32,000 nucleotides of DNA from Microcystis aeruginosa NIES-843 (GTDB lineage: Bacteria; Cyanobacteriota; Cyanobacteriia; Cyanobacteriales; Microcystaceae): assembly GCF_000010625.1 (NCBI RefSeq), contig NC_010296.1, positions 4,410,001 through 4,442,000 on the forward strand. The letters run 5' to 3'. Shown here piece after piece: positions 539-25,921 of this stretch. The notes beneath the pieces are model-generated. The model saw only the letters and a program-made list of their open reading frames with translations, searched no databases and was not told where the DNA came from. The stretch's first letter is position 1; every line of letters begins with the position of its first letter. Position numbers and translations under genes: made by a program.

Positions 539-611
<73 letters not shown>

Positions 612-6566: not shown

Positions 6567-7553
6567 TTAGGCAATCACCTGAATATTGCTTGCACCGAGG
6601 GTCGCTGCGCCAGAGCCACCAATGTTTGCGATTGTAACCAGACTAACACCAAGACCAGCGTCTGTGTCAAACTGTAAAACACCACCACTGTAGACAAATC
6701 TGACAGCACCACCCGCAGTTGCCCCGAATAGGCTAGGAGCCAAAGTACCACCAACGGTAGTCAGTCCACCACCGAAACCACCGTTAGAAACTACGATAGC
6801 ATCCGTATTGCCGCTAGCGATGTTAAAATCCGCGATCAAGTCACCGCCTTCGTTGGGATTGTTGTAAACAAAACGGTCATTACCATTACCACCAGTGAGG
6901 GTGTCGCTTCCTAAGCCACCGATTAGGGTATCCGCTCCCCCGATACCGGATATTATATCGTTACCATCGCCACCGATTAGGGAATCGAAACCATTACCAC
7001 CATTTAGGGTATCGTTACCATTACCACCAATTAGGGTATCGGCACCCTCGCCACCACTTAGGACATCGTTACCATCGCCACCAATTAGGGTATCGGTACT
7101 GTTACCGCCCGTTAGAGTATCGTTGAACGCACTACCTGTGATGAAATAGGAATCGGTGAGTAAGAGTGGTGCGATCGAACTTACTACTTGCGGACCCGAC
7201 GCTTTCGTGTTAACAATACCGCCGGTTAGTTGATAAGTGCCGGCAGACCCGCCTCTAACAAAGGTAAGGCTATTTGCTGGCAGGGAAAGGGTCTTAGAAA
7301 AGCCTCCACCGGCCCTGGAAAGGGTTGCGCTATCAGCAACGCCTGCGTTGGCTATTCTCCAAACTGTATCGCCGCCCGTACTTAAAAGTCCCAGGGAAGT
7401 GAGATTATCGGCGGTAAGGCCTGTTGTCGATATAGAAATGGGGACAGTAGGATGGGCGTTCAGGAAAGCGGCAACTGACGTAGTCACAGTAGGATTGAAA
7501 CTAGCACCAGTGGGACCGGGGAGGCTAGCGAATGATATGGTTACAGTGGGCAT
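6567..7553 (-). CDS. RTX-type (hemolysin-type) calcium-binding repeat protein
   Basis: 328 aa, rich in Gly/Thr/Ser/Ala. Nine consecutive nonapeptides of the GGxGxDxLx type (GGDGNDVLS GGEGADTLI GGNGNDTLN GGNGFDSLI ...). No N-terminal signal peptide, as expected for a type I secretion substrate. Confidence 0.85.
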   Translation of the reverse strand: MPTVTISFASLPGPTGASFNPTVTTSVAAFLNAHPTVPISISTTGLTADNLTSLGLLSTGGDTVWRIANAGVADSATLSRAGGGFSKTLSLPANSLTFVRGGSAGTYQLTGGIVNTKASGPQVVSSIAPLLLTDSYFITGSAFNDTLTGGNSTDTLIGGDGNDVLSGGEGADTLIGGNGNDTLNGGNGFDSLIGGDGNDIISGIGGADTLIGGLGSDTLTGGNGNDRFVYNNPNEGGDLIADFNIASGNTDAIVVSNGGFGGGLTTVGGTLAPSLFGATAGGAVRFVYSGGVLQFDTDAGLGVSLVTIANIGGSGAATLGASNIQVIA

Positions 7554-7689: not shown

Positions 7690-8223
7690 TCAATTTTGGG
7701 TTAATTTTCGGCTGGGTGTGGTATAAATCACGCCAGAAATTAAAGTTAATGTCACCGATAGCCAAAAGGCAATCTGAGAAATTAAGTTATATTCAGAAGG
7801 CAAGGGAGCAATTAAGAGAGCGATAGCGATAATTTGGCTGACTGTTTTGCTTTTTCCCCACCAATTAGCCCCTTTTATGTCGCTATTTCCCGTTAAATTC
7901 GGATTAATACGCCAACCAGCGATCGCTAATTCGCGAGCGAGAATCAAAAATACTCCCCAAGCAGCAATTAAATCCATTTCAATCAGAGCTAAGAGGGGAG
8001 CGAGAACCAGTAATTTATCGACCAAAGGATCGAGAAATTTGCCTAATTCGGTGATTTGATTCAATTTTCGCGCTAAATAACCATCGAGCCAATCGGTGCT
8101 GGCAGCAATCAGAAAGATAATTAAACTTAACCAGCGATCGATTTCTGTGCCTTGGTGCAACCAGTATAAAATTAATGGCAGTCCCAAGAGTCGCGATAGG
8201 GTAATCGAGTTGGGTAGGTTCAT
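7690..8223 (-). CDS. pgsA: CDP-diacylglycerol--glycerol-3-phosphate 3-phosphatidyltransferase
   Basis: 177 aa, polytopic. CDP-alcohol phosphotransferase motif DWLDGYLARKLNQITELGKFLDPLVDK. Confidence 0.9.
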   Translation of the reverse strand: MNLPNSITLSRLLGLPLILYWLHQGTEIDRWLSLIIFLIAASTDWLDGYLARKLNQITELGKFLDPLVDKLLVLAPLLALIEMDLIAAWGVFLILARELAIAGWRINPNLTGNSDIKGANWWGKSKTVSQIIAIALLIAPLPSEYNLISQIAFWLSVTLTLISGVIYTTPSRKLTQN

Positions 8224-8231
8224 TTTTCAGT

Positions 8232-8257
8232 GATCAGTAATCAGTAATCAGTAATCA
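8232..8257. repeat. (AGTAATC)n heptamer tract, interrupted by the element at 8258-8403 and resuming at 8404
   Basis: Direct reading: gatcagtaatcagtaatcagtaatca, then the element, then gtaatcagtaatcagtaaac. Confidence 0.9.
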
Positions 8258-8403
8258 GGCTCTCTTAGGTTTGGTGGGTAAAATGTATTCTAAGATACAT
8301 TCCTCCTAGCGAGTGAGTGGAAGGAACCACAAAGACACAGAGGACACAAAGACTGATCGATCATAATGTAAGTTAAACTTATCACACAAAGAATAAGAGA
8401 GCC
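8258..8403. mobile_element. 146-bp MITE-like insertion inside a heptamer tract
   Basis: 10-bp TIRs GGCTCTCTTA (8258-8267) and TAAGAGAGCC (8394-8403). GTAATCA flanks both sides (8251-8257, 8404-8410), but that is also the host repeat unit, so the duplication is ambiguous. No ORF. Confidence 0.55.
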
Positions 8404-8484
8404 GTAATCAGTAATCAGTAAACATTAAACAGTCAACAGTAATCAGTAAAAAGGCAGCTCCGAGCTTGTCGCTTAATACTATTC

Positions 8485-8551
8485 ACTTAAAACTTAAAAC
8501 TTAAAACTTAAAACTTAAAACTGATAACTGATAACTGATAACTGATAACTG
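8485..8551. repeat. (ACTTAAA)x5 followed by (CTGATAA)x4, abutting the desaturase stop codon
   Basis: Direct reading of 8485-8551. On the gene (minus) strand the array reads TAG-AATCAG-(TTATCAG)n. Confidence 0.95.
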
Positions 8552-8554
8552 ATT

Positions 8555-9649
8555 CTAGCTGGCTAATTTGAGATCGAAATTACTTTGTTTATTGCCTAAT
8601 TGTCTGAGCCAACGATAATTATAAGTTAAAGCACCTCGCAGGGTGGGATAAACGGCATAATTAACGCCAAATTCTTGGCAAACTTCCGCTAAGATTGGGG
8701 CAATTTGGGGGTAGTGAATATGGCAAATTTGCGGGAAAAGATGGTGAACAACTTGATAATTTAATCCCCCTAAATACCAATTTAAAAAGGCATTTTTAGG
8801 AGCAAAATCTACGGTAGTTCGCACTTGAAAGATTGCCCATTCGTCTTCGATTTGGTTAGCTGCCGAGGGTTGAATAAATTCGGCGGGTTCCAAAACGTGA
8901 GCTAACATAAATACATGACAGGCAAGCACTCCATAGGTCATAAAAGCAATGAGAAAACCGATCGCTATTTCTAGGGGACTATAACCAACTAGAAGAGGAA
9001 TGCCAATAAACCAGAAGAGATAAACAACTTTTCCGCTCAATAAAACGAATAGATCGATCGGTTTAGGATTAGGAATTTTAATCTCGCCAAAACGATGACC
9101 AAAGAGAATAGAGCGCACATCGGAGAATGACCAATAGATAGGAATTATAGCGTAGAGAATCGGGATAAATAAATGTTGATAACGATGATACCATTTATGC
9201 TCGGCATGGGGAGTCATTCGCACGATACCATCGCCGTGAATTTCCACATCGTACCCTAAAACATTGGTGTAGGTATGATGGAGATAATTATGACGAAAAC
9301 GCCAGAGATAACTGGAAGTACCGATGATATAATCGTAGCTCATGCCAAGGAGAGAATTAACCCATTTTTTACTAGAATAGCCGCCATGGTTAGCATCATG
9401 ACCAATGCTAAAACCGATTCCTGCTAATCCTCCTCCTAAAACCATGCAACCGATAATTTTCAGCCACCAGATATCCGGACCAAAAAGTACAAATAGCCAA
9501 GCGGCAATTACCCAAGTTAAAATCGTGATCGTCTTCAGGTACATGGCAAAATTATCTCTGGTGGGGATGCCGTTTTCGGTAAAATAAGCATCAACCCGTT
9601 TATTCAATTCCTTTCTAAAACCCTGATTTTCGGTAAAAGTTACTCGCAT
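8555..9649 (-). CDS. desD: Front-end acyl-lipid desaturase, delta-6 type
   Basis: 364 aa. His boxes HDANH, HNYLHH and QVVHH; the Gln in box 3 is a front-end desaturase hallmark. There is no cytochrome b5 fusion. It aligns end to end with my recollection of Synechocystis DesD (YLKT..., HNYLHHTYTN, DDEWA, NYRWL). Confidence 0.85.
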   Translation of the reverse strand: MRVTFTENQGFRKELNKRVDAYFTENGIPTRDNFAMYLKTITILTWVIAAWLFVLFGPDIWWLKIIGCMVLGGGLAGIGFSIGHDANHGGYSSKKWVNSLLGMSYDYIIGTSSYLWRFRHNYLHHTYTNVLGYDVEIHGDGIVRMTPHAEHKWYHRYQHLFIPILYAIIPIYWSFSDVRSILFGHRFGEIKIPNPKPIDLFVLLSGKVVYLFWFIGIPLLVGYSPLEIAIGFLIAFMTYGVLACHVFMLAHVLEPAEFIQPSAANQIEDEWAIFQVRTTVDFAPKNAFLNWYLGGLNYQVVHHLFPQICHIHYPQIAPILAEVCQEFGVNYAVYPTLRGALTYNYRWLRQLGNKQSNFDLKLAS

Positions 9650-9885
9650 TCCTAATTTTTGTCCTAGAAGTTGATATGACGGCTATTTGTGGCAGCTCAG
9701 AGTGAATTTATGAGTCTTGTACTGGTTTGCTAAGGCTGTCTCACTATAACTGATAGTTTCTCATCAGTCTCTCATCTATTGTCAGAGAAAGAGGTGCGCT
9801 TGGCAAGGGAATCGCTCAATTTATTTGCTACTCTTGCAGAAAATCCTCGGTTTTTACCTAATCAGATAGCAGATACCTGTAGCCG

Positions 9886-11043
9886 GTGATAGAGATGAGC
9901 ATTAGGTGCTTTTGTACTACTATTAAGACCATTGAAGGCGATCGAGTTTTCTGGTGCGAAGTGCCACAATTAAGAAAATCGATCGATGCGATCGCTGGAA
10001 GCGTGGCCGATGATGAAGCGGTGTATTTTTATCTGTGGCAATGGTTACAGAATGATCCTAATAACCAATTAGTCAAGTCCCATTGGATGGTTTTCTTACA
10101 ATATCGCTCCTGTATGGTAACTCAAAGGGTCTATAAAAATGTTGGCCATCGGATCGATGCTGATTATGAAACCCTCTTCTACTATTTGCTGAATTTGCTT
10201 GCCACGGCAATCACCAACAATCCTCGCAATTTTTACGGTAACTTTCAGGATAACAAGACCAAACCGGGATTTTTTCGCTTAATCTTAGAAAAATGGACAG
10301 ATAAAAAATTAAGAAATACTCTCTATAATTTTCTGCGAGGAGAGTATAAAACGATTGGCAGGACTAATCTCGGTATAGTCAGTCTTTTTAGTGCGAATAA
10401 AATTCAAAAAGTTTTACGAACATCGGGTATCTTTAACGAGAATCATCTGCTAATATTTAACTGTTTTCGAGAGGTTAAAAAAGCTTCTCTTAGATCATTG
10501 GATAAGTGGCAAGAGGAGGATTGGCAACAGGTAATCGATCGCCTACAGCAGTTACAACCGCAAGTTATTCTCACCGTTGAGGAAGTGCAAGCAAAACTCA
10601 ATCAAATAGGGGAGATAATGCGTAATCATATCGATCCTCCTTACTCTAAATTTGAGCCTAATAATTATGACGATAATAGCAATTACTTTTGGGAAAATAT
10701 CCCCAGCAAGAAGCCAAGTAAAGATTTACTACAACAGCAAGAAATCCAGGAAGATATTAATAAGTTATTAATCACTCTTGAGGATGAAGTTAAACAGATT
10801 GTATATTATTACTATCATCAAAAGATGACGCAAGCACAGATCGCTAATCGATTGGGAGTTCATTCATCTACTATTAGTCGAGAAATAACCCAATTATGTA
10901 AAAAAATTTATCAGCTACTCTGTGCAAGGGAAGGCAAAGATTGCCCTATTTTGTTAAATGAGATTCAATTAGAATCTCGGCAAAAACAAGAGATCGATGC
11001 TTATCTAAAATATTTTTGTCAGTCCTACTTAACTCAAATCTAA
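9886..11043 (+). CDS. Divergent sigma-70-family / HetZ-like putative transcription regulator
   Basis: 385 aa. The C-terminal region-4-type HTH is YYYYHQKMTQAQIANRLGVHSSTISREITQLCKKIYQLL. A region-2-like stretch is FFRLILEKWTDKKLRNTLYNFLR. The start may be GTG 9886 or ATG 9895. The CDS itself is solid; the function is inferred. Confidence 0.6.
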   Translation: MIEMSIRCFCTTIKTIEGDRVFWCEVPQLRKSIDAIAGSVADDEAVYFYLWQWLQNDPNNQLVKSHWMVFLQYRSCMVTQRVYKNVGHRIDADYETLFYYLLNLLATAITNNPRNFYGNFQDNKTKPGFFRLILEKWTDKKLRNTLYNFLRGEYKTIGRTNLGIVSLFSANKIQKVLRTSGIFNENHLLIFNCFREVKKASLRSLDKWQEEDWQQVIDRLQQLQPQVILTVEEVQAKLNQIGEIMRNHIDPPYSKFEPNNYDDNSNYFWENIPSKKPSKDLLQQQEIQEDINKLLITLEDEVKQIVYYYYHQKMTQAQIANRLGVHSSTISREITQLCKKIYQLLCAREGKDCPILLNEIQLESRQKQEIDAYLKYFCQSYLTQI

Positions 11044-11059
11044 TCTGTTAGGAGATACC

Positions 11060-12424
11060 ATGAAAGTCAACCTCGATATTTTGCAACAAATTAACCCGAA
11101 ATCCCTTTGGCTAACTTTTTCGGAAACAGAGATTAAACAAGCTCGATCGATTCTCGGTCAATACTCTAATCAAACCGCCAAAAATCAGGCTTTGATTAAT
11201 TACTTGGTGCAAATATGCTTAAGCAATTGGCTGAAAGATAATCTTGATTGTTCCCTTCAAATAATACCTGAAAACCATCAGTATCTTTGGGAGTTTATTA
11301 ACGGGTTTACTTGGCAGATTAAAGACAAAAAAGTTACTACTATTCCCAGTCAAGCGATTGACATTGAGGGATTGACAATAGAGCAAGAATGGGTTGATAT
11401 TCCCGATTTAGCGGCAGATTTTTATCTAGGGGTGCAGGTAGATTTAGCAGAAAAATTTCTCAATATCTGGGGTTTTATATCCAGAAAAGATGTTAAAAAT
11501 CTCGCAGAATACGATTCAATTTACCATCAATATTATTTAGATAGTGAGCAAATGATTGATGATTTAGATATTCTTTGGCAGAGTTGTTTAGAGGGAGAGA
11601 GTGAACAAGAAAAACTGGAATCTTTAGCAAATTTATCGCCAGCAACAGCAGAAAAATTAATTAAAAAGTTAGGTCAAGTTTCACCCTATTCTCCGAGATT
11701 AGATATTAGTTGTCAGCAGTGGTTAGCTTTGTTGAATGATCAGCAATGGCGAGAAAAACTTTATCAGCAGCGTCTAGAAATAATCCCCACTAAACTTAGT
11801 CAATGGTTACAGGGAATTATTACAGAGAAATGGCAGGAAATCCTCAGCACTATCGACAATTATCGTCCAATTAATCCAGGGTTTTTGTTGGCTGCTGAAA
11901 AAATCAGCAGCCGAGAATCTCCGACAGATATTCAGCGAGAAATTAGACAACTGTATGCTAGTCAAAAAGAGGTGGAATTTTCGGAACATTTAACCCCAGA
12001 GGAAGCTTTAGCAAAACTGCAACATCAAACCCAAGATGAAACTATTCGCTGGCAAGCGGCCGAATATCTCTGGAATATTGATCCTCATTATCCCAATGCT
12101 GCTATTCGTAAAATGCTCGATGTGGGTAGTCAATTAATGGGTTATAAAATCGCTTTAATGGTGGGAGTTTTATCGACCAGTGACCAGAGAATTGCTGTTT
12201 TAATTCGTGCCTATGCCATGGACAATTTTGCCAAGCTACCCCCTGGTTTATCTTTGCAAATTAGCGATGAAATAGGCCAATTAATCCCCGGTTTAGAAGC
12301 AAGAGCAAGGGAGAAACCCTTAGATAGCTATCTACAGCTTTATTTTCTAGCTGATGCCGACGATCGCTTTAATGTTAACCTAAGTTTAGGGGACAGTAGC
12401 ATTACCGAACAGTTTAGGATTTAA
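11060..12424 (+). CDS. DUF1822-like (PatU-like) protein
   Basis: 454 aa. RBS AGGAG lies upstream and the gap to the preceding gene is 16 nt. It has one HEAT-like motif (ETIRWQAAEYLWNIDPHYPNAAI). The beta-rich C-terminus (IAVLIRAYA...LPPGLSLQISDE...YLQLYFLADADDRFNVNLSLGDSSITEQFRI) matches my memory of DUF1822 proteins. No HMM was run. Confidence 0.55.
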   Translation: MKVNLDILQQINPKSLWLTFSETEIKQARSILGQYSNQTAKNQALINYLVQICLSNWLKDNLDCSLQIIPENHQYLWEFINGFTWQIKDKKVTTIPSQAIDIEGLTIEQEWVDIPDLAADFYLGVQVDLAEKFLNIWGFISRKDVKNLAEYDSIYHQYYLDSEQMIDDLDILWQSCLEGESEQEKLESLANLSPATAEKLIKKLGQVSPYSPRLDISCQQWLALLNDQQWREKLYQQRLEIIPTKLSQWLQGIITEKWQEILSTIDNYRPINPGFLLAAEKISSRESPTDIQREIRQLYASQKEVEFSEHLTPEEALAKLQHQTQDETIRWQAAEYLWNIDPHYPNAAIRKMLDVGSQLMGYKIALMVGVLSTSDQRIAVLIRAYAMDNFAKLPPGLSLQISDEIGQLIPGLEARAREKPLDSYLQLYFLADADDRFNVNLSLGDSSITEQFRI

Positions 12425-12456
12425 TAGAGATAGCAGAAAATGTCAAGGGTAGAGAC

Positions 12457-15069
12457 ATGAGCAGAGTTGTGATTCTGAAAATTGGTGATGGCAGTTTTGA
12501 GACGGGATTTTCCGTCACTCTAGAAATTCGTGACAATCATCTCTTGATAGCACCTTTTGCGGAGGGTAGATTAGTCCCTAACCTTGACATTGCTGACGCT
12601 TTGCAAAATTATCGTCGAGCTTATTATCATTGGGTAAAAAGTCAACCCAGTTTAGGAATTACCGTTCCTCATAGCATGATCACCCATGCAGCGGTAGGTG
12701 ATCCTAGAGACAACCTCAAAAAAGCCACTAAAACTTTAAAAGATAGCTTAAATGAATGGCTAAATTCCAGTTCTCTGAGTTCGATACAAAATCATATCTT
12801 GTTCCATATAGGTACTGAGTCAGAAGTAAGATTTTTTATCCAAACTACCCACTTTGATCTACAACAAATTCCCTGGGAGTCTTGGAATTTTTTACACAAA
12901 TGGTTTCCCGATGTGGAAATTGCTCTTACTATCCAGATAGATCCCCCGAGAGAACGTACTTTTACTTATCCGATTAATGTTTTAGTAATTTTGGGCAATA
13001 TTGACATCGAAAACAAGCATACTTCCCTGTGTTTATCCAGTTTGCAAACGGTACTAGGAAACCAAGATAAGGTTTCTATGCAAATATTAAGTCCTGGTTC
13101 AGACCCTCCTCTTTCAACGATAAATATTCACAATGAGTTGATCAAAAATCCATGGGATATTGTAGTTTATTTAGGTCATAGTCAAACCAGTAGTGACGGT
13201 CACGATGGAGTTTTTATCATTGATAATGATACGGCTTTATCTCCAGAACATAACTTAAGAAATTCCCTAGAAAAAGCTGTTAAAAAAGGCTTAAAACTTG
13301 TTATCTGTAATTCCTGCGATGGTTTAGGTATTGGCCGTCAGTTGGCTAATATCGGAGTACCCCATATTATTGTTATGAAAGAACCGATCGCCGTGCGGGT
13401 TGCTTTGAGATTTCTAGAAGTTTTTCTTCCCAATTTTCTTGGACATAAATCCCTACAAGAATCCTTAACAATCGCTCGACAAGACTTAAAATTACACGCA
13501 TTTGCGGTGGATGCTGCTAGTTCTTCTTTGCTGCCTCGTTTGATAGAAAATCCTGAAGAACCACCGTTAATTTTACCTTTACCCCCTGAAAATACGGAGG
13601 AAAATCACCAAAATAATCATGAGCAAAGTTGGCCTTTACGTCTATCTAGTCGCTGGAAACAAGCTCTGTTATTTATTTTAAGTCTTCTGGTAACTTTATC
13701 AATTTTATATTGGGGAGGAGTATTTTCCGATGATGCTAGTAAATACCCAGAAATTAGCTTAGGTGAAGAAATATTATTAAAGACAAACCGACAAGATAAC
13801 ATTATTGAACGGGGAAGACAAGCTTTTAAAAACAAAGAATATAAACAAGCAATTCAGCTTTTTAAAAAATCCCTCGATCGCTTGCCCAATAATCCAGAGA
13901 TTCGCATCTATTATAATAACGCTCGTGCGGCCTATCAAGACAGAAATCCCTTAAAAATTGCCACCAGTGTTCCGCTTGGTAATAATCCAGAAACTGCTCA
14001 GGAAATTTTACGAGGTATTGCTTTATTCCAAGAGGAGTTAAACGATGAACAGGCCAAAAACCCCGATTTTCACTTTCTACAGGTAGTGGTCGCTAATGAT
14101 AATAATAGCCCCGTAGATGCCAAAGATCGAGCCGAAAAATTTGTTAAAGATCCGTCAATCTTAGCAGTGGTTGGTCATAATGCTTCTGCTGCTAGTGAAG
14201 CGGCCAAAGATATCTATGTACAAGGGAAAATTGTTGCCCTATCTCCCACCAGCTTTTCCCCGAAAATCTCCGGTAATGGCTATGTGTATAAGATGGTTCC
14301 CGATCTGGAAACTTTTGCCACAACCTTAAGTGAATACATCCGCAAACAAACTGACAAGCTAATTATCCAAAACCCCACTAATTTAATTTGTTACGATAAT
14401 CGCTCTGGGGATAATTATAACTTCGCTCAAAAATATAGAAACATTCTTCTCGGTCAGCAGTTTCAAAAAGTCATTAAAGATGCAGATTTTGACTGCAATA
14501 TCGAACCAAAAAATAATTTAGATCAAGAGAAAATTTATCAAAAAATCGCTCAATACCAAGTAAATATTCTCATGATTGCTCCCTATATTAACGATCTGAA
14601 AAGAGCCGTCAGTATCTTTAAGCAACGTCCCGCACAACAGTTAAACTTAGTGATTTTAGGTTCCCCCACCTTTCAAAGTTATCTCACCCTTGCAGAAGGT
14701 AAACAAGGAGTAGAAAATTTAGTTATCACCGTGCCTTGGTATGATCTCAAACAAGATAATTATATCCACAGTTTTTGGCAAAATAAGATCAATGTTTGGC
14801 GCACTCCCATGGCCTACGATGCGACCAAAGTTATCCTCACCGCTTTGCGACAGTTATACCAACAAGGACAAAAATTCGATCGAGAATTATTAAATCAAGT
14901 TTTAAGAAACGATTTTTCTATCGAAGGAATGACTGGCACTGTTAGATTCGATGAGAATGGTGTCCGCAACATGAACAATAATCCTGATGATCGCCGCTAC
15001 TTGATTCTACAGGTCAAAAAGGGTCAATTTGTCCCCCTCGCTCCCATTAAATCTGCCGGTCCAGTCTAA
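12457..15069 (+). CDS. Transmembrane receptor: cytoplasmic CHAT (caspase-like) protease domain, one TM helix, periplasmic TPR-like motif and type I (LivK/ANF-receptor-type) solute-binding domain
   Basis: 870 aa. CHAT features: IPWESW, His241 in VVYLGHS (nt 13177-13179), Cys287 in LVICNSCDG (nt 13315-13317). TM helix ALLFILSLLVTLSILYWGGVF (aa 402-423) has RLSSRWKQ before it and SDDAS after it. TPR-like segment RGRQAFKNKEYKQAIQLFKKSLDRLPNNPEIRIYYNNA. Binding-protein motifs AQEILRGIALFQEE, VVGHNASAASEAA and LSPTSFS. Confidence 0.75.
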   Translation: MSRVVILKIGDGSFETGFSVTLEIRDNHLLIAPFAEGRLVPNLDIADALQNYRRAYYHWVKSQPSLGITVPHSMITHAAVGDPRDNLKKATKTLKDSLNEWLNSSSLSSIQNHILFHIGTESEVRFFIQTTHFDLQQIPWESWNFLHKWFPDVEIALTIQIDPPRERTFTYPINVLVILGNIDIENKHTSLCLSSLQTVLGNQDKVSMQILSPGSDPPLSTINIHNELIKNPWDIVVYLGHSQTSSDGHDGVFIIDNDTALSPEHNLRNSLEKAVKKGLKLVICNSCDGLGIGRQLANIGVPHIIVMKEPIAVRVALRFLEVFLPNFLGHKSLQESLTIARQDLKLHAFAVDAASSSLLPRLIENPEEPPLILPLPPENTEENHQNNHEQSWPLRLSSRWKQALLFILSLLVTLSILYWGGVFSDDASKYPEISLGEEILLKTNRQDNIIERGRQAFKNKEYKQAIQLFKKSLDRLPNNPEIRIYYNNARAAYQDRNPLKIATSVPLGNNPETAQEILRGIALFQEELNDEQAKNPDFHFLQVVVANDNNSPVDAKDRAEKFVKDPSILAVVGHNASAASEAAKDIYVQGKIVALSPTSFSPKISGNGYVYKMVPDLETFATTLSEYIRKQTDKLIIQNPTNLICYDNRSGDNYNFAQKYRNILLGQQFQKVIKDADFDCNIEPKNNLDQEKIYQKIAQYQVNILMIAPYINDLKRAVSIFKQRPAQQLNLVILGSPTFQSYLTLAEGKQGVENLVITVPWYDLKQDNYIHSFWQNKINVWRTPMAYDATKVILTALRQLYQQGQKFDRELLNQVLRNDFSIEGMTGTVRFDENGVRNMNNNPDDRRYLILQVKKGQFVPLAPIKSAGPV

Positions 15070-15176
15070 ACCTTCCTATCCTTGTCAAGACTTTTTACAA
15101 AACTTAACCTTACCCACTGCATCAAAGTTAGCCATCACTCCTAATTAACAGGTAACACCTCTAGGAGACAAACGGC

Positions 15177-15896
15177 ATGAAATTGTTAAAAAAATTAACC
15201 CCAAAGGCCTTGATTTTTTGGCTGATCGGTGATAAGGCAGGAAATTCTCTCGTTGCGATCTGGAATTGGTTGTGGGGTATTCCCATCGAATCCGGCGGAA
15301 AAATTGCCGTAGAATCGGCCAAAGAATCCCTAGAATTGATGCAAAAATCCCTAGCGGAATTGACAGAATCGGTGGCGAAAGTAGTAGCGGCCCAGCAATC
15401 GGCTCAAGCACAATACGAGGCAAAAAAACAGGAACACACAAACTACTTGCAGCAGGCTGTCACCGCTCAAAAAAAAGGTCTTCAAGAAGCGGCAAGACTT
15501 GCTATGGTTAAGGTTATCTCCCTAGAAAAAATTCTACCCGCCATGAAAGATCGGGTTGATAATGCCGAAAAAGTGGTCATTGCTGCTAAGGAAAAACTTC
15601 GTAAAGAGCAGGAAAAAATCGAGCATTATAAGTTAGAAATGAGCAACTTAAAAGCGATTAGTTCCATGAATGAGGCTTTAGGTAAAATAAACGAATTTGA
15701 TAGTAGTCTCAACCTCAATACCTCCCGCGATCGCTTTGAGGATGCCAATGAAGCGATTAACGACCGTTATCGAAAAGAAAACGCCTATAGTGAATTAAGC
15801 GAGAACTATAGCGAGAAATTAGCTCAAGAAATCGATTTCTTAAGCCTTGATGACGAAATTAACCGCCGTTTAGCCGAATTCAATCAGCAAAGTTAA
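15177..15896 (+). CDS. PspA/IM30-family (ESCRT-III-like) coiled-coil protein with an unusually hydrophobic N-terminus
   Basis: 239 aa with RBS AGGAGA. The long heptad coiled coil follows the PspA layout: QQAVTAQKKGLQEAARLAMVK, EKIEHYKLEMSNLKA, SRDRFEDANEAINDRYRKENAYSELSE, and a C-terminal LSLDDEINRRLAEF. Confidence 0.6.
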   Translation: MKLLKKLTPKALIFWLIGDKAGNSLVAIWNWLWGIPIESGGKIAVESAKESLELMQKSLAELTESVAKVVAAQQSAQAQYEAKKQEHTNYLQQAVTAQKKGLQEAARLAMVKVISLEKILPAMKDRVDNAEKVVIAAKEKLRKEQEKIEHYKLEMSNLKAISSMNEALGKINEFDSSLNLNTSRDRFEDANEAINDRYRKENAYSELSENYSEKLAQEIDFLSLDDEINRRLAEFNQQS

Positions 15897-15907
15897 GGAG
15901 TAAAGCA

Positions 15908-17257
15908 ATGACAAAGACTGGCAAAAAAGCGGGTTTACCGCCAATTTCCTATGTTTTACTGGGGTTGATCGGTTGGTTTCTTTTTCCCCAAATCTCGGCA
16001 ATATTTGCCCCAAAAGCCGATAATAATCCCCGCATCAGTTACGGCAATCATCTCCTGATCAAAACTAATTCTAACACCACCAAAGAATCAGCGATCGCTG
16101 CCATTGCTCAAGGTGATCACCAAGAAGCAGAGCAACTCCTGCAAAAATCCCTCGCTCAACGTCCCAACGATCCCGAAAGCGTAATTTATCTCAGCAACCT
16201 GCAAACTGGCTCAAATCCCTTTAAAATCGCCGTTGTTGTGCCAGCAACAACTAATCCCAACGTCGCTCAGGAAATATTGCGAGGAGTCGCCAGCGCACAA
16301 ACCCAGATCAATCAACAGGGAGGGATCAACGGCAGAAAACTGATGGTTATCGTGGTTAATGACGATAATCAGCCGCAGATATCGAAAGAGGTAGCTGGTG
16401 AATTAGTCAAAAATCCTGATATTATCGCTGTTATCGGTCATAATGCCTCCGATGCCAGTTTAGCCGCCGCTCCCATCTACGAAAAAGGCGGTTTGGTGAT
16501 GATTTCTCCCACCTCCCTGGCTAATAATCTCTCCGGTGCGGGAAATTATATCTTTCGTCTCGTGGCTTCTAACGGCAAAATTACGGAAACCTTAGCAAAT
16601 TACATAGTAAATACTGCTAAAGTCCAGAAAATTGCTTTTTGCTACGATTCTCAAGCTCCTGATAATATTTCCTTTAAAGATGAGTTGATGGCTAATGTGG
16701 CGAAAAAAGGCGGTCAAATTGTGCCGATAGTCTGTGATCTGAGTGTCCCCAATTTTAAGGCCGATCAAGCTCTTAATCAGGCGATTTCTGGGGGTGCTAA
16801 CGGTCTATTTGTCGTCGCTCATGTTGATCGTCTCGATCCCGTTTTTGAGGTTATTCGCTCCAATCGTCAGCGTTTGCCTCTGTTTAGTAGTCCCACCCTC
16901 TACAATATTCGCACCCTCGAAGATGGCGGCAAAAACGCCCAAGGTTTAACCCTTGCCGCACCCTGGCACCCCTCGGTTAACCAGACTTTTGCCAATCTTA
17001 TGCAGGAACAGTGGCGCGGTCCAGTTAGTTGGCGCACAGCCACCAGTTTTGACGCTACACGGGTGATTATTGCCGGTTTAAGGGAAAATACCCATCGTCA
17101 AGGCCTACAATCCCTGCTGCGCTCTGGCAATTTTCATCAAACAGGGGCCACCGGAAAAATTAGCTTTGATCCCAATACTGGCGATCGCATTGGTCAGCCG
17201 GTGTTAATTCAAGTGCGATCGACTCCCTCCGGTGAGCAGTTTGTCCCTTTGCCTTGA
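15908..17257 (+). CDS. Membrane-anchored TPR plus type I solute-binding protein, paralogous to the C-terminal half of the 12457 gene
   Basis: 449 aa with RBS AAGGAG, 11 nt after the PspA-like gene. N-terminal anchor KKAGLPPISYVLLGLIGWFLFPQISAIF. TPR-like HQEAEQLLQKSLAQRPNDPESVIYLSN. Motifs FKIAVVVPATTNPNVAQEILRGVASAQ, IAVIGHNASDASLAAAPIY and MISPTSLA are collinear with aa 430-870 of the CHAT receptor. Confidence 0.8.
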   Translation: MTKTGKKAGLPPISYVLLGLIGWFLFPQISAIFAPKADNNPRISYGNHLLIKTNSNTTKESAIAAIAQGDHQEAEQLLQKSLAQRPNDPESVIYLSNLQTGSNPFKIAVVVPATTNPNVAQEILRGVASAQTQINQQGGINGRKLMVIVVNDDNQPQISKEVAGELVKNPDIIAVIGHNASDASLAAAPIYEKGGLVMISPTSLANNLSGAGNYIFRLVASNGKITETLANYIVNTAKVQKIAFCYDSQAPDNISFKDELMANVAKKGGQIVPIVCDLSVPNFKADQALNQAISGGANGLFVVAHVDRLDPVFEVIRSNRQRLPLFSSPTLYNIRTLEDGGKNAQGLTLAAPWHPSVNQTFANLMQEQWRGPVSWRTATSFDATRVIIAGLRENTHRQGLQSLLRSGNFHQTGATGKISFDPNTGDRIGQPVLIQVRSTPSGEQFVPLP

Positions 17258-17409
17258 AAAGTCCCCAGTCCACAAAAGTCGGGAGAGCTGCCAACTCTCC
17301 CCCCAAAAAATCTCAAAAATTACAATTATTTCAATGTTCAACCCTGAGCAAGAAATGAATGGCTAATATGTTAAAATATGCCTAGATATTTGTAAACTTT
17401 TTCCTTTGT

Positions 17410-18120
17410 ATGGATATCGTTATTATCGAAGATGAAATTGAAATCGCCCATTTGATTCAGCAAACTTTAGAGCGGGAGTCCTTTACTTGTCATCTGGCTT
17501 ATAATGGTAGGGTAGGACTAGAACTATTTTATCAAAAGCAACCAGAATTAGTGATTTTAGATTTAATGTTACCCGAATTAGACGGACTGGAATTGTGTGC
17601 TAGAATTCGCCAAAAACCCGGGACAAAAGACCCCTATATCTTAATGTTAACCGCTAGGGGAGAAGAAATCGATCGCATTATCGGTCTATCTACGGGAGCC
17701 GACGATTATATGGTCAAACCCTTTAGTCCCCGGGAATTAACCGCTCGCGTAAGGGCATTATTAAGACGTAGTTTAAGACACGATAGTCAACCCCAGCAAC
17801 TCCATCGCAGCCGTCATTTTCTGATCGACTTAGATCAACATTCTGCTCTTCGTAAATTGGAGGGAATGCCGGAGGAAACCCTCGATTTAACCACCTTAGA
17901 ATTTAATTTATTAGCTACCTTTGTCAGTTATCCCAATCGCGTCTGGAGTCGCACCCAATTAATCGATAATCTCTGGGGAAATGATTTTTTTGGCGATGAA
18001 AGGGTAGTAGATACCCATATCCGACGCTTACGCAAAAAAGTAGAACCCGATCCTGCTAATCCGATCTTTATCAAAACTGTAGTCGGTGTCGGTTATAAAT
18101 TTGAGGATGACATTATTTAG
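17410..18120 (+). CDS. OmpR-family response regulator (receiver plus winged helix)
   Basis: 236 aa. Receiver motifs IVIIEDE, LVILDLMLPELDG and YMVKPF. C-terminal winged helix LTTLEFNLLATF...IRRLRKKVE...TVVGVGYKF. The stop TAG (18118-18120) lies inside a MITE terminal repeat. No kinase gene is adjacent. Confidence 0.9.
   Translation: MDIVIIEDEIEIAHLIQQTLERESFTCHLAYNGRVGLELFYQKQPELVILDLMLPELDGLELCARIRQKPGTKDPYILMLTARGEEIDRIIGLSTGADDYMVKPFSPRELTARVRALLRRSLRHDSQPQQLHRSRHFLIDLDQHSALRKLEGMPEETLDLTTLEFNLLATFVSYPNRVWSRTQLIDNLWGNDFFGDERVVDTHIRRLRKKVEPDPANPIFIKTVVGVGYKFEDDII

Positions 18121-25850: not shown

Positions 25851-25921
<71 letters not shown>

Follow-up and report, generated by a model that had tools for sequence, protein, structure and literature searches.

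The closest described relatives of the locus analysed here are the EACC2-caspase systems, which were defined computationally and contain its core trio of genes (Kaur et al. 2021, PMC8195603). In these systems a caspase found in ECF-sigma/DUF1822 neighbourhoods is proposed to trigger sigma-dependent transcription on stimulus, and autoproteolysis of the caspase protein is favoured over cleavage of DUF1822 (PMC8195603). A second point of comparison is HetF, a CHAT-TM-periplasmic TPR protein with catalytic Cys295 that cuts PatU3 after Arg117 (PMC9457339, PMC8406250) and shows no cleavage of HetR or PatA (PMC9457339). HetZ was shown in 2026 to be an ECF-type sigma factor, and PatU3, the product of the adjacent gene, is a probable anti-sigma (PMC13342950). 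Switches of this type have been predicted by computation, with experimental tests confined to heterocyst development.

The locus lies in a 32,000-nucleotide stretch of the Microcystis aeruginosa NIES-843 chromosome, referred to below as the window. Its five genes are judged slightly better than an even bet to form a one-pass receptor-caspase signalling system controlling a dedicated sigma factor, that is, a protease-gated transcription switch. What is new here is a conserved promoter-like dyad, TGCAnnnn-N-CCYAAT, about 32 nt 5' of both the sigma and the PspA genes.

Organization of the Locus

The cluster consists of the following features, in window coordinates:

9886-11043, + strand: g1 open reading frame, opening with GTG at 9886; translation more probably starts at ATG 9895
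9895..11043, + strand: g1 from ATG, long sigma-70/ECF-type sigma factor, 382 aa
11060..12424, + strand: g2, DUF1822 protein, 454 aa
12457..15069, + strand: g3, receptor-protease, 870 aa
15177..15896, + strand: g4, PspA/IM30 (ESCRT-III-like) protein, 239 aa
15908..17257, + strand: g5, membrane-anchored periplasmic TPR and binding-protein paralogue of the g3 ectodomain
17281..17301, + strand: inverted repeat with a 9-bp stem, starting 24 nt past the g5 stop codon

A sequence-only reading had described five same-strand genes with an empty opposite strand, and the ORF listing agrees exactly: g1-g5 are co-oriented with intergenic gaps of 16, 32, 107 and 11 nt, and the minus strand across the cluster holds only ORFs of 60-98 aa. 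The AGGAG-type ribosome-binding sites that it reported are present before g2 (ttAGGAGatacc-ATG), g4 (ctAGGAGacaaacggc-ATG) and g5 (ttAAGGAGtaaagca-ATG), and g3 has only a weak one. The transcription unit may end at the inverted repeat, which lacks a T-run on the + strand and is therefore not a canonical intrinsic terminator. The GC content of the cluster is 0.36-0.40, compared with 0.43-0.50 in its flanks. No integrase or transposase was found near the cluster, and neither the ORFs nor the domain search revealed permease or ATPase genes inside or adjoining it.

The Receptor-Protease

The third gene encodes a cytoplasmic N-terminal constant domain and a CHAT domain, one TM helix, and a periplasmic TPR and Venus-flytrap domain:

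12457..13572, + strand: constant module, aa 1-372, an N-terminal beta/alpha domain and a caspase-like alpha/beta domain in the predicted fold
13177-13179, + strand: codon of catalytic His241, invariant in alignments
13315-13317, + strand: codon of catalytic Cys287, invariant in alignments
13654..13728, + strand: TM helix, aa 400-424, hydropathy 2.18 (helix 399-419 in the predicted structure)
13798..15036, + strand: periplasmic region, with TPR hairpins at aa 448-494 and a binding-protein fold at aa ~499-860

The domain search matched CHAT above its cut-off (E 1.6e-6) and Peripla_BP_6 (E 1.2e-15), together with TPR and ANF_receptor. His241 and Cys287, the dyad placed at these positions from the outset, are invariant across sets of 11 and 15 diverse sequences with identity down to 27-38%. 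The constant module matched 2064 cluster representatives, nearly always from aa 1 to ~370, and in other proteins the regions joined to it are of the kinase, NACHT, STAND-WD40, NB-ARC, pentapeptide or PBP type; g3 thus belongs to a family that combines a constant module with a variable sensor. A poorly conserved linker (aa 379-445), predicted to be disordered, joins the caspase domain to the TM helix. TM hydropathy and the predicted structure bear out the proposed topology of CHAT inside and binding-protein domain outside, with an inside N-terminus, RLSSRWKQ on the cytoplasmic side of the helix and SDDAS on the outer side. The binding-protein fold is of the Leu/Ile/Val type. Foldseek aligns it with Leu/Ile/Val, GABA and aromatic-acid binding proteins at TM 0.78-0.85, and also with the ectodomains of class C GPCRs (GABA-B, mGluR) and the ANP receptor.

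The Neighbouring Proteins

The remaining domain assignments (Sigma70_r4, DUF1822, PspA_IM30 and a second Peripla_BP_6) hold as well. The g1 product matches Sigma70_r4 with 28.9 bits, its region 4 HTH (~aa 290-340) being preceded by a long, non-canonical N-terminal sequence of ~290 aa in which region 2 was not detected by sequence. TIGR02937 (sigma70-ECF) is matched by all 15 of 15 g1 orthologues (best 2.6e-17), and a family profile compared with known structures matches SigF and FliA at 5e-8. Foldseek returns almost exclusively sigma factors as top matches, although these are weak (best E 5e-3, from a model with pLDDT 65), and NCBIfam and PDB searches give generic sigma-70/ECF matches only. 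DUF1822 (PF08852) covers the full length of g2 (E 1.5e-65). Hydropathy shows no hydrophobic segment and hence no TM in g2; searches found neither a relative of solved structure nor a match to known anti-sigma domains. By its position, g2 is a candidate for both anti-sigma factor and protease substrate.

PspA_IM30 is matched by g4 at E 7.8e-12 (45.7 bits against a cut-off of 33.9), and aa 50-228 align with Vipp1/PspA structures at E 1e-4. Its N-terminus carries a family-specific tryptophan-rich motif, ALIFWLIGDKAGNSLVAIWNWLWGIPIESGGK, conserved in 16 loci. The g5 product contains TPR and Peripla_BP_6 (E 6.8e-33) and a TM helix at aa 13-35 with the N-terminus inside. The view of g5 as a second sensor without an effector proved correct: it has no cytoplasmic effector, and it is a full-length paralogue of the g3 ectodomain (32% identity, E 8e-62), the similarity covering the whole ectodomain with its TPR and its juxtamembrane P-x-IS-x-G motif.

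Conservation Across Genomes

In eight Microcystis species the cluster occupies one syntenic chromosomal site, in the order pgsA-desaturase-cluster-response regulator-gyrB. Within the genus, g1 and the g3 protease module show 89-91% identity compared with 96-99.7% for flanking genes, indicating faster evolution. Conservation of the neighbourhood, a prediction of the sequence-only reading, extends to filamentous cyanobacteria, where the five genes are found together at only 37% identity (locus L001); in L005 and L006 they co-occur at 54-65%. The genes run in the order sigma, DUF1822, CHAT-PBP: by strict criteria, at least 55 of 70 loci have DUF1822 immediately 5' of CHAT-PBP, and in 48 of 51 the gene immediately 5' of DUF1822 encodes a sigma factor. 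Where the upstream ORF is short, it encodes a divergent ECF sigma factor, and 6 of 11 such ORFs match TIGR02937. PspA is present in 9 of 13 long-sigma loci, whereas PspA and PBP are absent from 36 of 39 short-sigma loci and are thus not obligatory for the switch. Recurrence in dozens of genomes indicates that the arrangement reflects more than chance.

Promoter-Like Dyads

Two related elements precede g1 and g4:

9835..9862, + strand: P1 promoter-like dyad, TGCAGAAA-N14-CCTAAT, ending 32 nt before the g1 ATG
15118..15145, + strand: P2 promoter-like dyad, TGCATCAA-N14-CCTAAT, ending 31 nt before the g4 ATG

The dyad pattern, refined after the Microcystis sites had been seen, matches the window at exactly 2 places, where 0.04 would be expected. 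When 64,000 window positions are scored with a PWM built solely from non-Microcystis loci and sites, P1 ranks 1st and P2 4th; their scores do not exceed the maxima of Markov-random sequence, so that only rank and position are striking. The same dyad occurs 5' of sigma genes in L015, L020, L021, L022, L054 and the Microcystis loci, 5' of PspA genes in L001, L005, L006, L015-L018, L021 and L023, and, in L003, 5' of a Band_7 gene that replaces PspA. Across 84 loci it was found 30 times, always on the strand of the system (30/30) and in long-sigma loci in 29 of the 30 cases. The short-sigma clade has a common motif of its own, AAGTTTTGTAAAG, located 5' of the sigma gene in loci from Calothrix and Rivularia; L051, L060 and L066 have the order PspA-PBP-sigma-DUF1822-CHAT/PBP, and there the motif precedes the PspA gene.

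A dyad common to sigma and PspA genes points to an autoregulated sigma factor with a local regulon that includes PspA and a decoy-like binding protein. P1 is proposed to be the autoregulated promoter of the sigma operon and P2 a sigma-dependent promoter of the g4-g5 unit, and g1 would be the factor that recognises the TGCA...CCYAAT dyad.

Proposed Mechanism and Alternatives

The ligand-gated proteolytic switch suggested from the sequence remains the best explanation, strengthened by the motif before the sigma and PspA genes; the mechanism itself is what we infer. In the most likely sequence of events, ligand binding would activate the protease, which would cut a DUF1822 inhibitor and so release the sigma factor. 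The g3 protein would reside in the cytoplasmic membrane, with its binding-protein domain and TPR in the periplasm and its CHAT protease in the cytoplasm, and at rest soluble g2 would keep g1 inactive. Binding of a small amino-acid-like or organic-acid-like ligand to the ectodomain would switch on the CHAT protease, probably via altered dimerisation, and cleavage of g2 would free g1. Together with RNA polymerase, g1 would then transcribe from TGCAnnnn-N(13-15)-CCYAAT promoters, its targets being its own operon, as positive feedback, and the g4-g5 unit. The putative output is membrane-directed, through g4 as a PspA/IM30-type scaffold with a Trp-rich N-terminus, and g5 would provide feedback by modulating the receptor, most plausibly as an induced decoy or a heterodimer partner.

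The same components could be wired differently: CHAT may cut itself, the sigma factor or the PspA-like protein, with DUF1822 as a TPR-like adaptor or scaffold. This arrangement, which we consider unlikely, agrees with the autopeptidase activation put forward for EACC2/EACC1 systems (PMC8195603), and the disordered linker of g3 offers a cuttable segment, just as the long N-terminal sequence of g1 could serve as a pro-region. However, in the sole tested member-like system a CHAT protease cuts PatU3 in trans and not HetR or PatA, and DUF1822 is the most constant neighbour of sigma and caspase, as expected of a linking partner. Somewhat less probable still is a conflict module for anti-phage defence or programmed cell death, in which an invader-derived or damage signal would unleash a toxic caspase-like effector and PspA would buffer or execute membrane damage. 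The constant module is joined elsewhere to NACHT, nSTAND-WD40 and NB-ARC regions, which characterise proteins of immunity and apoptosis; this fits the idea, as do the placement of the family with apoptosis and immunity systems by Kaur et al. (PMC8195603), the faster evolution of g1 and the protease module, and the low GC of the cluster. Nevertheless, PADLOC gives no meaningful match to any of the five proteins, the cluster keeps one chromosomal position across the eight Microcystis species and has no neighbouring integrase or transposase, and the abortive-infection alternative raised earlier is accordingly unsupported. Moreover, the sensor is a periplasm-facing small-molecule fold rather than an intracellular invader sensor, and possession of its own sigma factor, under an autoregulation-type promoter, implies that the system has a transcriptional rather than a killing output.

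Database names suggest yet another reading, in which g3 and g5 are branched-chain amino-acid ABC binding proteins, or g3 an adenylate cyclase, with unrelated neighbours. Orthologues of g3 are named "ABC transporter substrate-binding protein" or "adenylate cyclase", and its ectodomain fold does resemble LivJ/LivK. The architecture effectively refutes this annotation and makes it highly improbable: transporter partner genes are missing from the cluster and its borders, an N-in TM helix tethers g3 and g5 alike to the membrane, 400 aa of g3 form a cytoplasmic protease module, the domain search found no cyclase domain, NCBIfam scores of 27.8 and 83.6 fall far under the LivJ cut-off of 477, and linkage to DUF1822 and sigma is kept in dozens of genomes. 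For the protease-gated switch, by contrast, the HMM assignments, the co-occurrence of the genes in other genomes and the conserved dyad, on which the sequence-only reading had depended, were all found.

Comparison With Known Systems

That reading knew of no system of this composition, a claim overtaken by the 2021 description of a core of ECF sigma, DUF1822 and constant-domain caspase (PMC8195603). As verified here, g1-g3 have the EACC2-caspase make-up of a constant N-terminal domain plus caspase with ECF-type sigma and DUF1822 neighbours, and, as in g3, the variable remainder of the caspase protein may lie outside the cell and include TM helices and domains that bind small molecules. The text describing EACC2 (PMC8195603) does not include a type I binding-protein sensor, a PspA/IM30 partner, an anchored sensor paralogue, a long (380-540 aa) sigma subclass or a promoter motif.

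By architecture and gene order, g1, g2 and g3 appear to parallel sigma-HetZ, PatU3 and HetF. HetF of Anabaena sp. PCC 7120 likewise has a cytoplasmic N-terminal catalytic domain, one TM and a periplasmic TPR (Cys295 compared with Cys287), and its substrate PatU3 is encoded beside a sigma factor of the ECF type that is exceptionally long and contains insertions, in the order sigma, then inhibitor, as for g1 and the candidate inhibitor g2. However, Anabaena hetF is unlinked to hetZ-patU, whereas here all three genes share one putative operon, and HetF lacks the binding-protein domain of g3. The promoters also differ (TCCGGA-N16/17-TGnA for sigma-HetZ, TGCA...CCYAAT here), and the Anabaena pathway is bound to HetR, heterocysts and cell division, whereas Microcystis has no heterocysts.

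Proteolysis of an anti-sigma factor in response to an extracytoplasmic signal frees an autoregulated sigma factor in several bacterial systems, namely RseA with DegS and RseP, RsiW, and RsiV. The proposed switch has the same logic of signal, inhibitor proteolysis and sigma release, with an envelope-protective regulon as output. In the classical cases the anti-sigma itself spans the membrane, whereas the candidate inhibitor here, DUF1822, is soluble; similarly, serine and metallo site-1/site-2 proteases give way here to a membrane-spanning sensor that is itself a caspase-like cysteine protease.

The g4 protein shares the PspA_IM30 coiled-coil core of PspA/IM30/Vipp1, and one relative of the cluster, with a Band_7 protein and an AAA ATPase in place of PspA, echoes the PspA/Band-7/AAA+ associations reported in the PSP survey (PMC11237479). 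Word searches of the survey's main text gave no link of PspA to a caspase, DUF1822 and sigma module and to an anchored binding protein (PMC11237479). Unlike in known PSP contexts, the partners PspF, PspB/C, Lia and Toastrack are absent around g4, and the amphipathic helix usual at the N-terminus of PspA proteins is replaced by the Trp-rich ALIFWLIGDKAGNSLVAIWNWLWGIPIESGGK.

Venus-flytrap receptors include class C GPCRs, natriuretic peptide receptors and bacterial PBP-fused sensor kinases. Like g3, they link a type I binding-protein ectodomain across the membrane with an effector in the cytoplasm, and the presence of g5, a paralogous ectodomain with no effector, is reminiscent of obligate heterodimers such as GABA-B1/B2. 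Their effector is a G-protein coupler, a cyclase or a kinase, whereas that of g3 is a caspase-like protease.

Organization of the Locus

The cluster consists of five genes on one strand, which encode a sigma factor (g1), a DUF1822 protein (g2), a receptor-protease that joins a CHAT domain to a transmembrane (TM) segment, TPR hairpins and a periplasmic-binding-protein (PBP) fold (g3), a PspA-like protein (g4), and an anchored paralogue of the receptor ectodomain (g5). An ORF listing reproduced the arrangement proposed from the sequence alone, with intergenic gaps of 16, 32, 107, and 11 nt. AGGAG-type ribosome-binding sites are seen before genes 2, 4, and 5, and the opposite strand of the cluster holds nothing beyond ORFs of 60-98 aa.

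Features of the cluster and structured RNAs in the window
539-611, + strand: tRNA-Phe (GAA)
9835-9862, + strand: promoter-like dyad before g1
9886-11043, + strand: g1 ORF, sigma factor; opens with GTG, an ATG three codons on (9895) being the likelier start
11060-12424, + strand: g2 ORF, DUF1822 protein
12457-15069, + strand: g3 ORF, receptor-protease
15118-15145, + strand: promoter-like dyad before g4
15177-15896, + strand: g4 ORF, PspA-like protein
15908-17257, + strand: g5 ORF, anchored receptor-ectodomain paralogue
25851-25921, - strand: tRNA-Cys (GCA)

The two tRNAs are the only Rfam/ARAGORN matches in the window, and the Rfam scan detected neither a riboswitch nor a leader within the cluster. 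A generic sigma-70 promoter and terminator scan returned many AT-rich consensus matches within genes and had no discriminating power. GC content is 0.36-0.40 at window positions 8000-15000 versus 0.43-0.50 on either side; the dip spans the desaturase gene and g1-g3 and fades over g4 and g5.

Two neighboring genes deserve mention in their own right. An OmpR/PhoB-type response regulator (17410-18120, +) lies directly 3' of g5, with no adjacent histidine kinase in the window. It is kept after g5 in Microcystis and in a 65%-identity relative (L005, 7009-7719) and is missing from this place in the metagenomic locus L001. An RTX calcium-binding repeat protein (6567-7553, -; HemolysinCabind, E 1.3e-21) is 42-68% identical among Microcystis species versus 94-98% for its neighbors pgsA and the desaturase, making it a hypervariable secreted protein within an otherwise conserved stretch.

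The Sigma Factor and the DUF1822 Protein

The sequence-only reading had recognized a sigma-like HTH, a DUF1822 protein, a membrane-spanning CHAT protease with a His/Cys dyad, a PspA-like protein, and an effector-less copy of the sensor, and each assignment is borne out. In g1, Sigma70_r4 scores 28.9 bits and places region 4 at aa 290-340. The sigma70-ECF superfamily model (TIGR02937) is matched by 15 of 15 g1 orthologues from other genomes (best 2.6e-17), and a g1 family profile matches regions 3-4 in structures of SigF and FliA (5e-8). Foldseek matches to the g1 AlphaFold model, itself of low confidence (pLDDT 65), are nearly all sigma factors and are weak (best E 5e-3). Region 4 of an ordinary ECF sigma factor begins near aa 130. 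Given these matches and a region 4 that begins near aa 290, g1 is an unusually long sigma-70-family protein; its longer orthologues carry their extension at the C terminus. PDB searches by sequence and by fold returned generic sigma factors, with no HetZ entry among the matches. A search of a 5.8-billion-protein collection, with g1 and with a 15-sequence family alignment as queries, yielded no relatives beyond Microcystis and a few of Calothrix type, and none of them bore the name HetZ; a Microcystis aeruginosa protein among them is 100% identical to g1. One g1 orthologue matches the TcaR model somewhere along the protein.

The g2 protein matches DUF1822 over its full length (E 1.5e-65). No hydrophobic segment was found in it, nor any solved structural relative. 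We take PatU to be a member of DUF1822; a full-text literature search for DUF1822 found no paper tying the two together.

The Receptor-Protease

The 870-aa g3 protein exceeds the Pfam cut-off for CHAT, and its catalytic dyad, His241/Cys287, shows no substitution among 11 full-length and 15 N-terminal sequences with identities as low as 27-38%. CHAT (aa 1 to ~370) lies inside; next, at aa 400-424, comes one TM segment whose N-terminal side is positively charged, and the TPR hairpins (aa 448-494, periplasmic side) and the binding-protein fold lie outside. In the structural model (pLDDT 76) a beta/alpha domain forms the N terminus, and an alpha/beta caspase-like domain comes next. The ectodomain model resembles Leu/Ile/Val, GABA, and aromatic-acid binding proteins with TM scores of 0.78-0.85 and also matches the ectodomains of class C GPCRs and natriuretic-peptide receptors. 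The fold indicates an amino-acid or organic-acid-sized ligand.

The protease half is a constant module with varying partners. With aa 1-400 as query, 2064 representatives of 50%-identity clusters were matched, 1732 of them at E<=1e-10, and the match is nearly always aa 1 to ~370 as a single unit in proteins of 373-1763 aa. Ten sampled relatives join the module to a Ser/Thr kinase, pentapeptide repeats, NACHT, nSTAND1 with WD40, NB-ARC, two PBP domains, or nothing. Searching the PDB with a profile of the CHAT module gave spurious ribosomal-protein matches only.

Public databases name g3 orthologues 'branched-chain amino acid ABC transporter substrate-binding protein' or 'adenylate cyclase', and a few 'CHAT domain protein'. 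The first name is refuted for g3 and g5 by their TM anchors, the fusion of g3 to a protease, the lack of adjacent transporter genes, and NCBIfam scores far below cut-off; the second is refuted by the architecture. This misannotation is systematic and is corrected by the present work.

The PspA-Like Protein and the Anchored Paralogue

The g4 protein scores 45.7 bits against PspA_IM30 (cut-off 33.9), and its aa 50-228 align with Vipp1/PspA structures. Since it reaches only 24.3 against the equivalog cut-off of 243 for PspA proper, it is a member of the PspA/IM30 family and not a PspA orthologue. The canonical N-terminal amphipathic helix is absent from g4, and in its place stands a distinct Trp-rich segment, FIYWLIGExAGRxLVxIWNWLWGIPVESGGK, conserved in 16 of 16 orthologues examined. 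No Psp partners (PspF, PspB/C) were found within the window. The g5 protein is TM-anchored with its N terminus inside, and its whole ectodomain shares 32% identity with the g3 one (E 8e-62), across the juxtamembrane motif, the TPR, and the binding-protein fold. We best read g4 as a membrane-directed output and g5, a sensor copy that lacks an effector and would be induced, as a feedback element, either decoy or heterodimer partner.

Conservation and Distribution

Eight Microcystis species carry the cluster at the same site, in the order pgsA, desaturase, g1-g5, response regulator, gyrB. The shared site and conserved flanks mark it as a core chromosomal locus and not a mobile island. Identities are 96-99.7% for the flanks and 97-98% for g4 and g5, with 91% for g1 and 89% for the g3 protease module, the two fastest-evolving parts; g3 orthologues as a whole are 85-96% identical within the genus. 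In Microcystis sp. LSC13-02 (L012, 10001-12379) the g3 ORF is cut to 792 aa, g4 and g5 were not detected downstream, and the cluster may be disrupted.

Outside Microcystis, well over 70 genomes of cyanobacteria, most of them filamentous, hold full-length CHAT-TM-PBP relatives, with at least 579 confirmed stretches. Among the matches listed, filamentous hosts include Microseira, Phormidium, Anabaena, Nostoc, Fischerella, Scytonema, Calothrix, Rivularia, and Pseudanabaena, and unicellular or colonial hosts include Hydrococcus and Cyanosarcina. A neighborhood check found the five genes together in the same order in the metagenomic locus L001 (g3 37% identical) and in contigs with g3 at 65% and 54%. 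When 84 fetched loci were scanned with profiles made from the window proteins, DUF1822 lay directly upstream of the CHAT-PBP gene in 55 of the 70 with enough sequence (at least 62 if split ORFs or slightly longer gaps are allowed), and the sigma gene lay directly upstream of DUF1822 in 48 of 51.

The sigma genes of these loci fall into two classes. The long class, which includes g1, encodes proteins of 380-540 aa (13 loci); the short class encodes proteins of ~215 aa (35 loci) that lack a Pfam match, with 6 of 11 matching sigma70-ECF (TIGR02937). PspA is present at 9 of 13 long-sigma loci and at only 3 of the 39 with a short sigma gene, and the five-gene form is thus an elaboration of one clade. 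The PspA-PBP pair lies downstream of the core in Microcystis/Microseira-type loci and upstream in three others (L051, L060, L066). That the pair is merely adjacent was considered and rejected, because it accompanies the core on either side and shares the promoter motif of the sigma gene.

Some filamentous genomes carry the receptor gene in tandem, with two to four copies behind a single sigma-DUF1822 pair, which suggests several sensors feeding one switch. Receptors of ~1240 aa with two tandem PBP domains after the TM segment were also seen, as in the protein P0240, where Peripla_BP_6 matches in two stretches. Full systems occur on contigs binned as 'Actinomycetota bacterium' (L068) and 'Candidatus Sericytochromatia' (L062). 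Misbinning probably explains the first label; if the second is genuine, the system would also extend to non-photosynthetic relatives of cyanobacteria.

Variant loci among relatives
Tandem receptor genes, four copies: Microseira wollei NIES-4236 (L017, 7446-17656)
Tandem receptor genes, further loci: L018, L020, L023, L035, L054, L076
Two-PBP receptors, Nostocales and Stigonematales: L028, L029, L033, L034, L036, L040, L041, L044, L046, L047, L070
Inserts between receptor genes and PspA in filamentous relatives (Ser/Thr kinase, some with DUF4359 before; subtilase; pentapeptide-repeat; several with the dyad upstream): L015 12561-14063, L021 12669-14144, L018 16145-18015
Inserts as above, further loci: L023 13558-15500, L017 17721-19922, L018 12776-14809
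Band_7/SPFH and AAA ATPase in place of PspA and anchored PBP: metagenomic L003, 4599-6983

Promoter-Like Elements

Alignment of the regions upstream of the sigma and PspA genes of long-sigma loci revealed the same dyad before both, typically cTGCATAtTTTTctcactc-aTCCCAATCcTAAA. A degenerate form, TGCAKMWW-N13-15-CCYAAT, which was tuned after the Microcystis sites had been seen, matches the window exactly twice, both times on the + strand; the expected count is 0.04, and none of 100 shuffles held two matches. The two dyads end 32 nt before the g1 start (9835-9862) and 31 nt before the g4 start (15118-15145). The 84 loci together hold 30 matches to the pattern, every one on the system's strand and 29 in long-sigma loci. 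A PWM trained without the Microcystis sites ranks the g1 site 1 and the g4 site 4 among 64,000 window positions. Because the top absolute PWM scores in Markov-random sequence are at least as high as those of the window sites, the case rests on rank, position, strand bias, and recurrence across genomes.

In filamentous relatives, further copies of the dyad stand before genes located between the receptor genes and PspA: a DUF4359 gene paired with a Ser/Thr-kinase gene, genes for unknown proteins of ~515-521 aa, and a subtilase gene. A variant, TGCATATT...GCAATA, precedes the Band_7 gene of L003, and that PspA gives way there to Band_7 plus AAA behind a promoter of this type speaks for a membrane scaffold as the part that the system needs. 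The short-sigma clade shares a different element, AAGTTTTGTAAAG. Calothrix and Rivularia loci have it before the sigma gene; L051, L060, and L066, whose genes run PspA-PBP-sigma-DUF1822-CHAT/PBP, have it before the PspA gene. Autoregulation is usual for ECF sigma factors, and the dyad may be read as the mark of an autoregulated alternative sigma factor with a local regulon that includes g4-g5.

A Proposed Protease-Gated Sigma Switch

The best-supported model, which we consider moderately probable, is a protease-gated sigma switch. A periplasmic ligand would bind the Venus-flytrap domain of g3 and thereby switch on its cytoplasmic CHAT protease. The protease would then cut the soluble DUF1822 protein g2, which is proposed to keep g1 inactive, and the freed g1 would transcribe its own operon and g4-g5. 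Beneath this model lie the protein identities, the topology, the conserved catalytic dyad, the conserved linkage, and the common promoter element; its remaining steps would follow by analogy from one tested precedent, HetF-PatU3 of Anabaena. Our confidence that sigma factor, DUF1822 protein, and receptor-protease form one signaling unit is much higher than for the full mechanism.

The same parts may act in another way, by autoproteolysis (Kaur et al. 2021) or by processing of g1 or g4, a reading we hold to be unlikely. Still less probable is a conflict or abortive-infection module. The STAND NTPase fusions in the protease family, the more rapid divergence of g1 and of the protease module of g3, and the low GC of the cluster would all suit such a role, but the locus holds a core syntenic position, its sensor is periplasmic and for small molecules, and its predicted output is transcriptional. 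PADLOC-DB 2.0 likewise gave no significant match: g2, g3, and g5 had none, g1 had weak HTH-level matches only (E of at least 4.7e-4), and g4 had a single marginal one.

A broader and more tentative proposal can also be made. The cluster could be a compact, self-sufficient archetype of a widespread signaling principle, in which a Venus-flytrap receptor-caspase binds a small molecule from outside the cell and cleaves a soluble DUF1822 anti-sigma factor so that an autoregulated sigma factor induces an ESCRT-III-type protein and a decoy co-receptor. HetF/PatU3/HetZ might then be a dispersed, specialized offshoot of the ancestral module, and in Microcystis an external metabolite might act through the module to steer a membrane or cell-fate response.

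Cyanobacteria are rich in caspase-like CHAT proteases. To our knowledge, almost none of them has a known substrate or trigger, and cleavage of PatU3 by HetF is the single tested case, so far read as a heterocyst and cell-division speciality. In the present cluster a single operon-like unit of a unicellular bloom-former of ecological importance unites the sensor and protease with a candidate substrate, the sigma factor, and candidate output genes. The cluster has predicted promoters usable as a read-out and is well suited to testing a general mechanism. It makes testable what activates a bacterial CHAT protease, whether DUF1822 is a new class of anti-sigma factor, and whether the HetZ/PatU/HetF circuit derives from a general signaling module.

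Comparison with Known Systems

The sequence-only reading knew of no characterized system of this composition, a claim that has to be withdrawn for the core, which had already been described computationally as a class of EACC2-caspases with ECF sigma and DUF1822 neighbors (Kaur et al. 2021, PMC8195603). All three defining features of that class are found here. The g3 protein has the constant N-terminal alpha+beta domain, probably EACC2 judging from the published description, and directly after it a caspase-like domain bearing the His/Cys dyad. The ten sampled relatives display the highly variable remainder (extracellular sensor with TM, kinase, STAND NTPase, repeats), and neighboring sigma and DUF1822 genes are present in the window and across loci. 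Because the constant module, caspase domain, and variable C terminus match, the cluster core is a member of this class, which is known from computation only.

The nearest experimental comparison is the heterocyst pathway. Anabaena HetF consists of CHAT, TM, and periplasmic TPR parts, has the catalytic Cys295, and cuts PatU3 after Arg117 (PMC9457339; PMC8406250). The g3 protein has the same layout of cytoplasmic CHAT, one TM segment, and periplasmic TPR, with the binding-protein domain as an addition. In sigma-HetZ, an ECF core with the insertions i1, i2, and i3, R291-Q298 contact the -35 element, and a resemblance to TcaR has been reported (PMC13342950); region 4 thus lies near aa 290 in both g1 and HetZ, a compatible layout when compared by description. 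Sigma-HetZ promoters carry TCCGGA at -35 and TGnA at -10 (PMC13342950), whereas the conserved dyad of the cluster, TGCAnnnn-N13-15-CCYAAT, points to a different specificity. By analogy the cluster would work like the HetZ/PatU3/HetF pathway and is at best a paralogous set; membership is not claimed, kinship being compared here by layout and promoter specificity being different.

For the output unit, word searches of the main text of a survey of PSP systems met no caspase, DUF1822, or sigma context (PMC11237479). Relative to these known systems, novelty lies in the binding-protein variant of the sensor and in the output unit of PspA and anchored paralogue (or Band_7 and AAA) that is consistent among long-sigma loci. 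The split of the sigma genes into two subclasses is also new, as are the conserved promoter elements linking the components and the finding that a unicellular bloom-former holds the whole set in a single operon-like unit.
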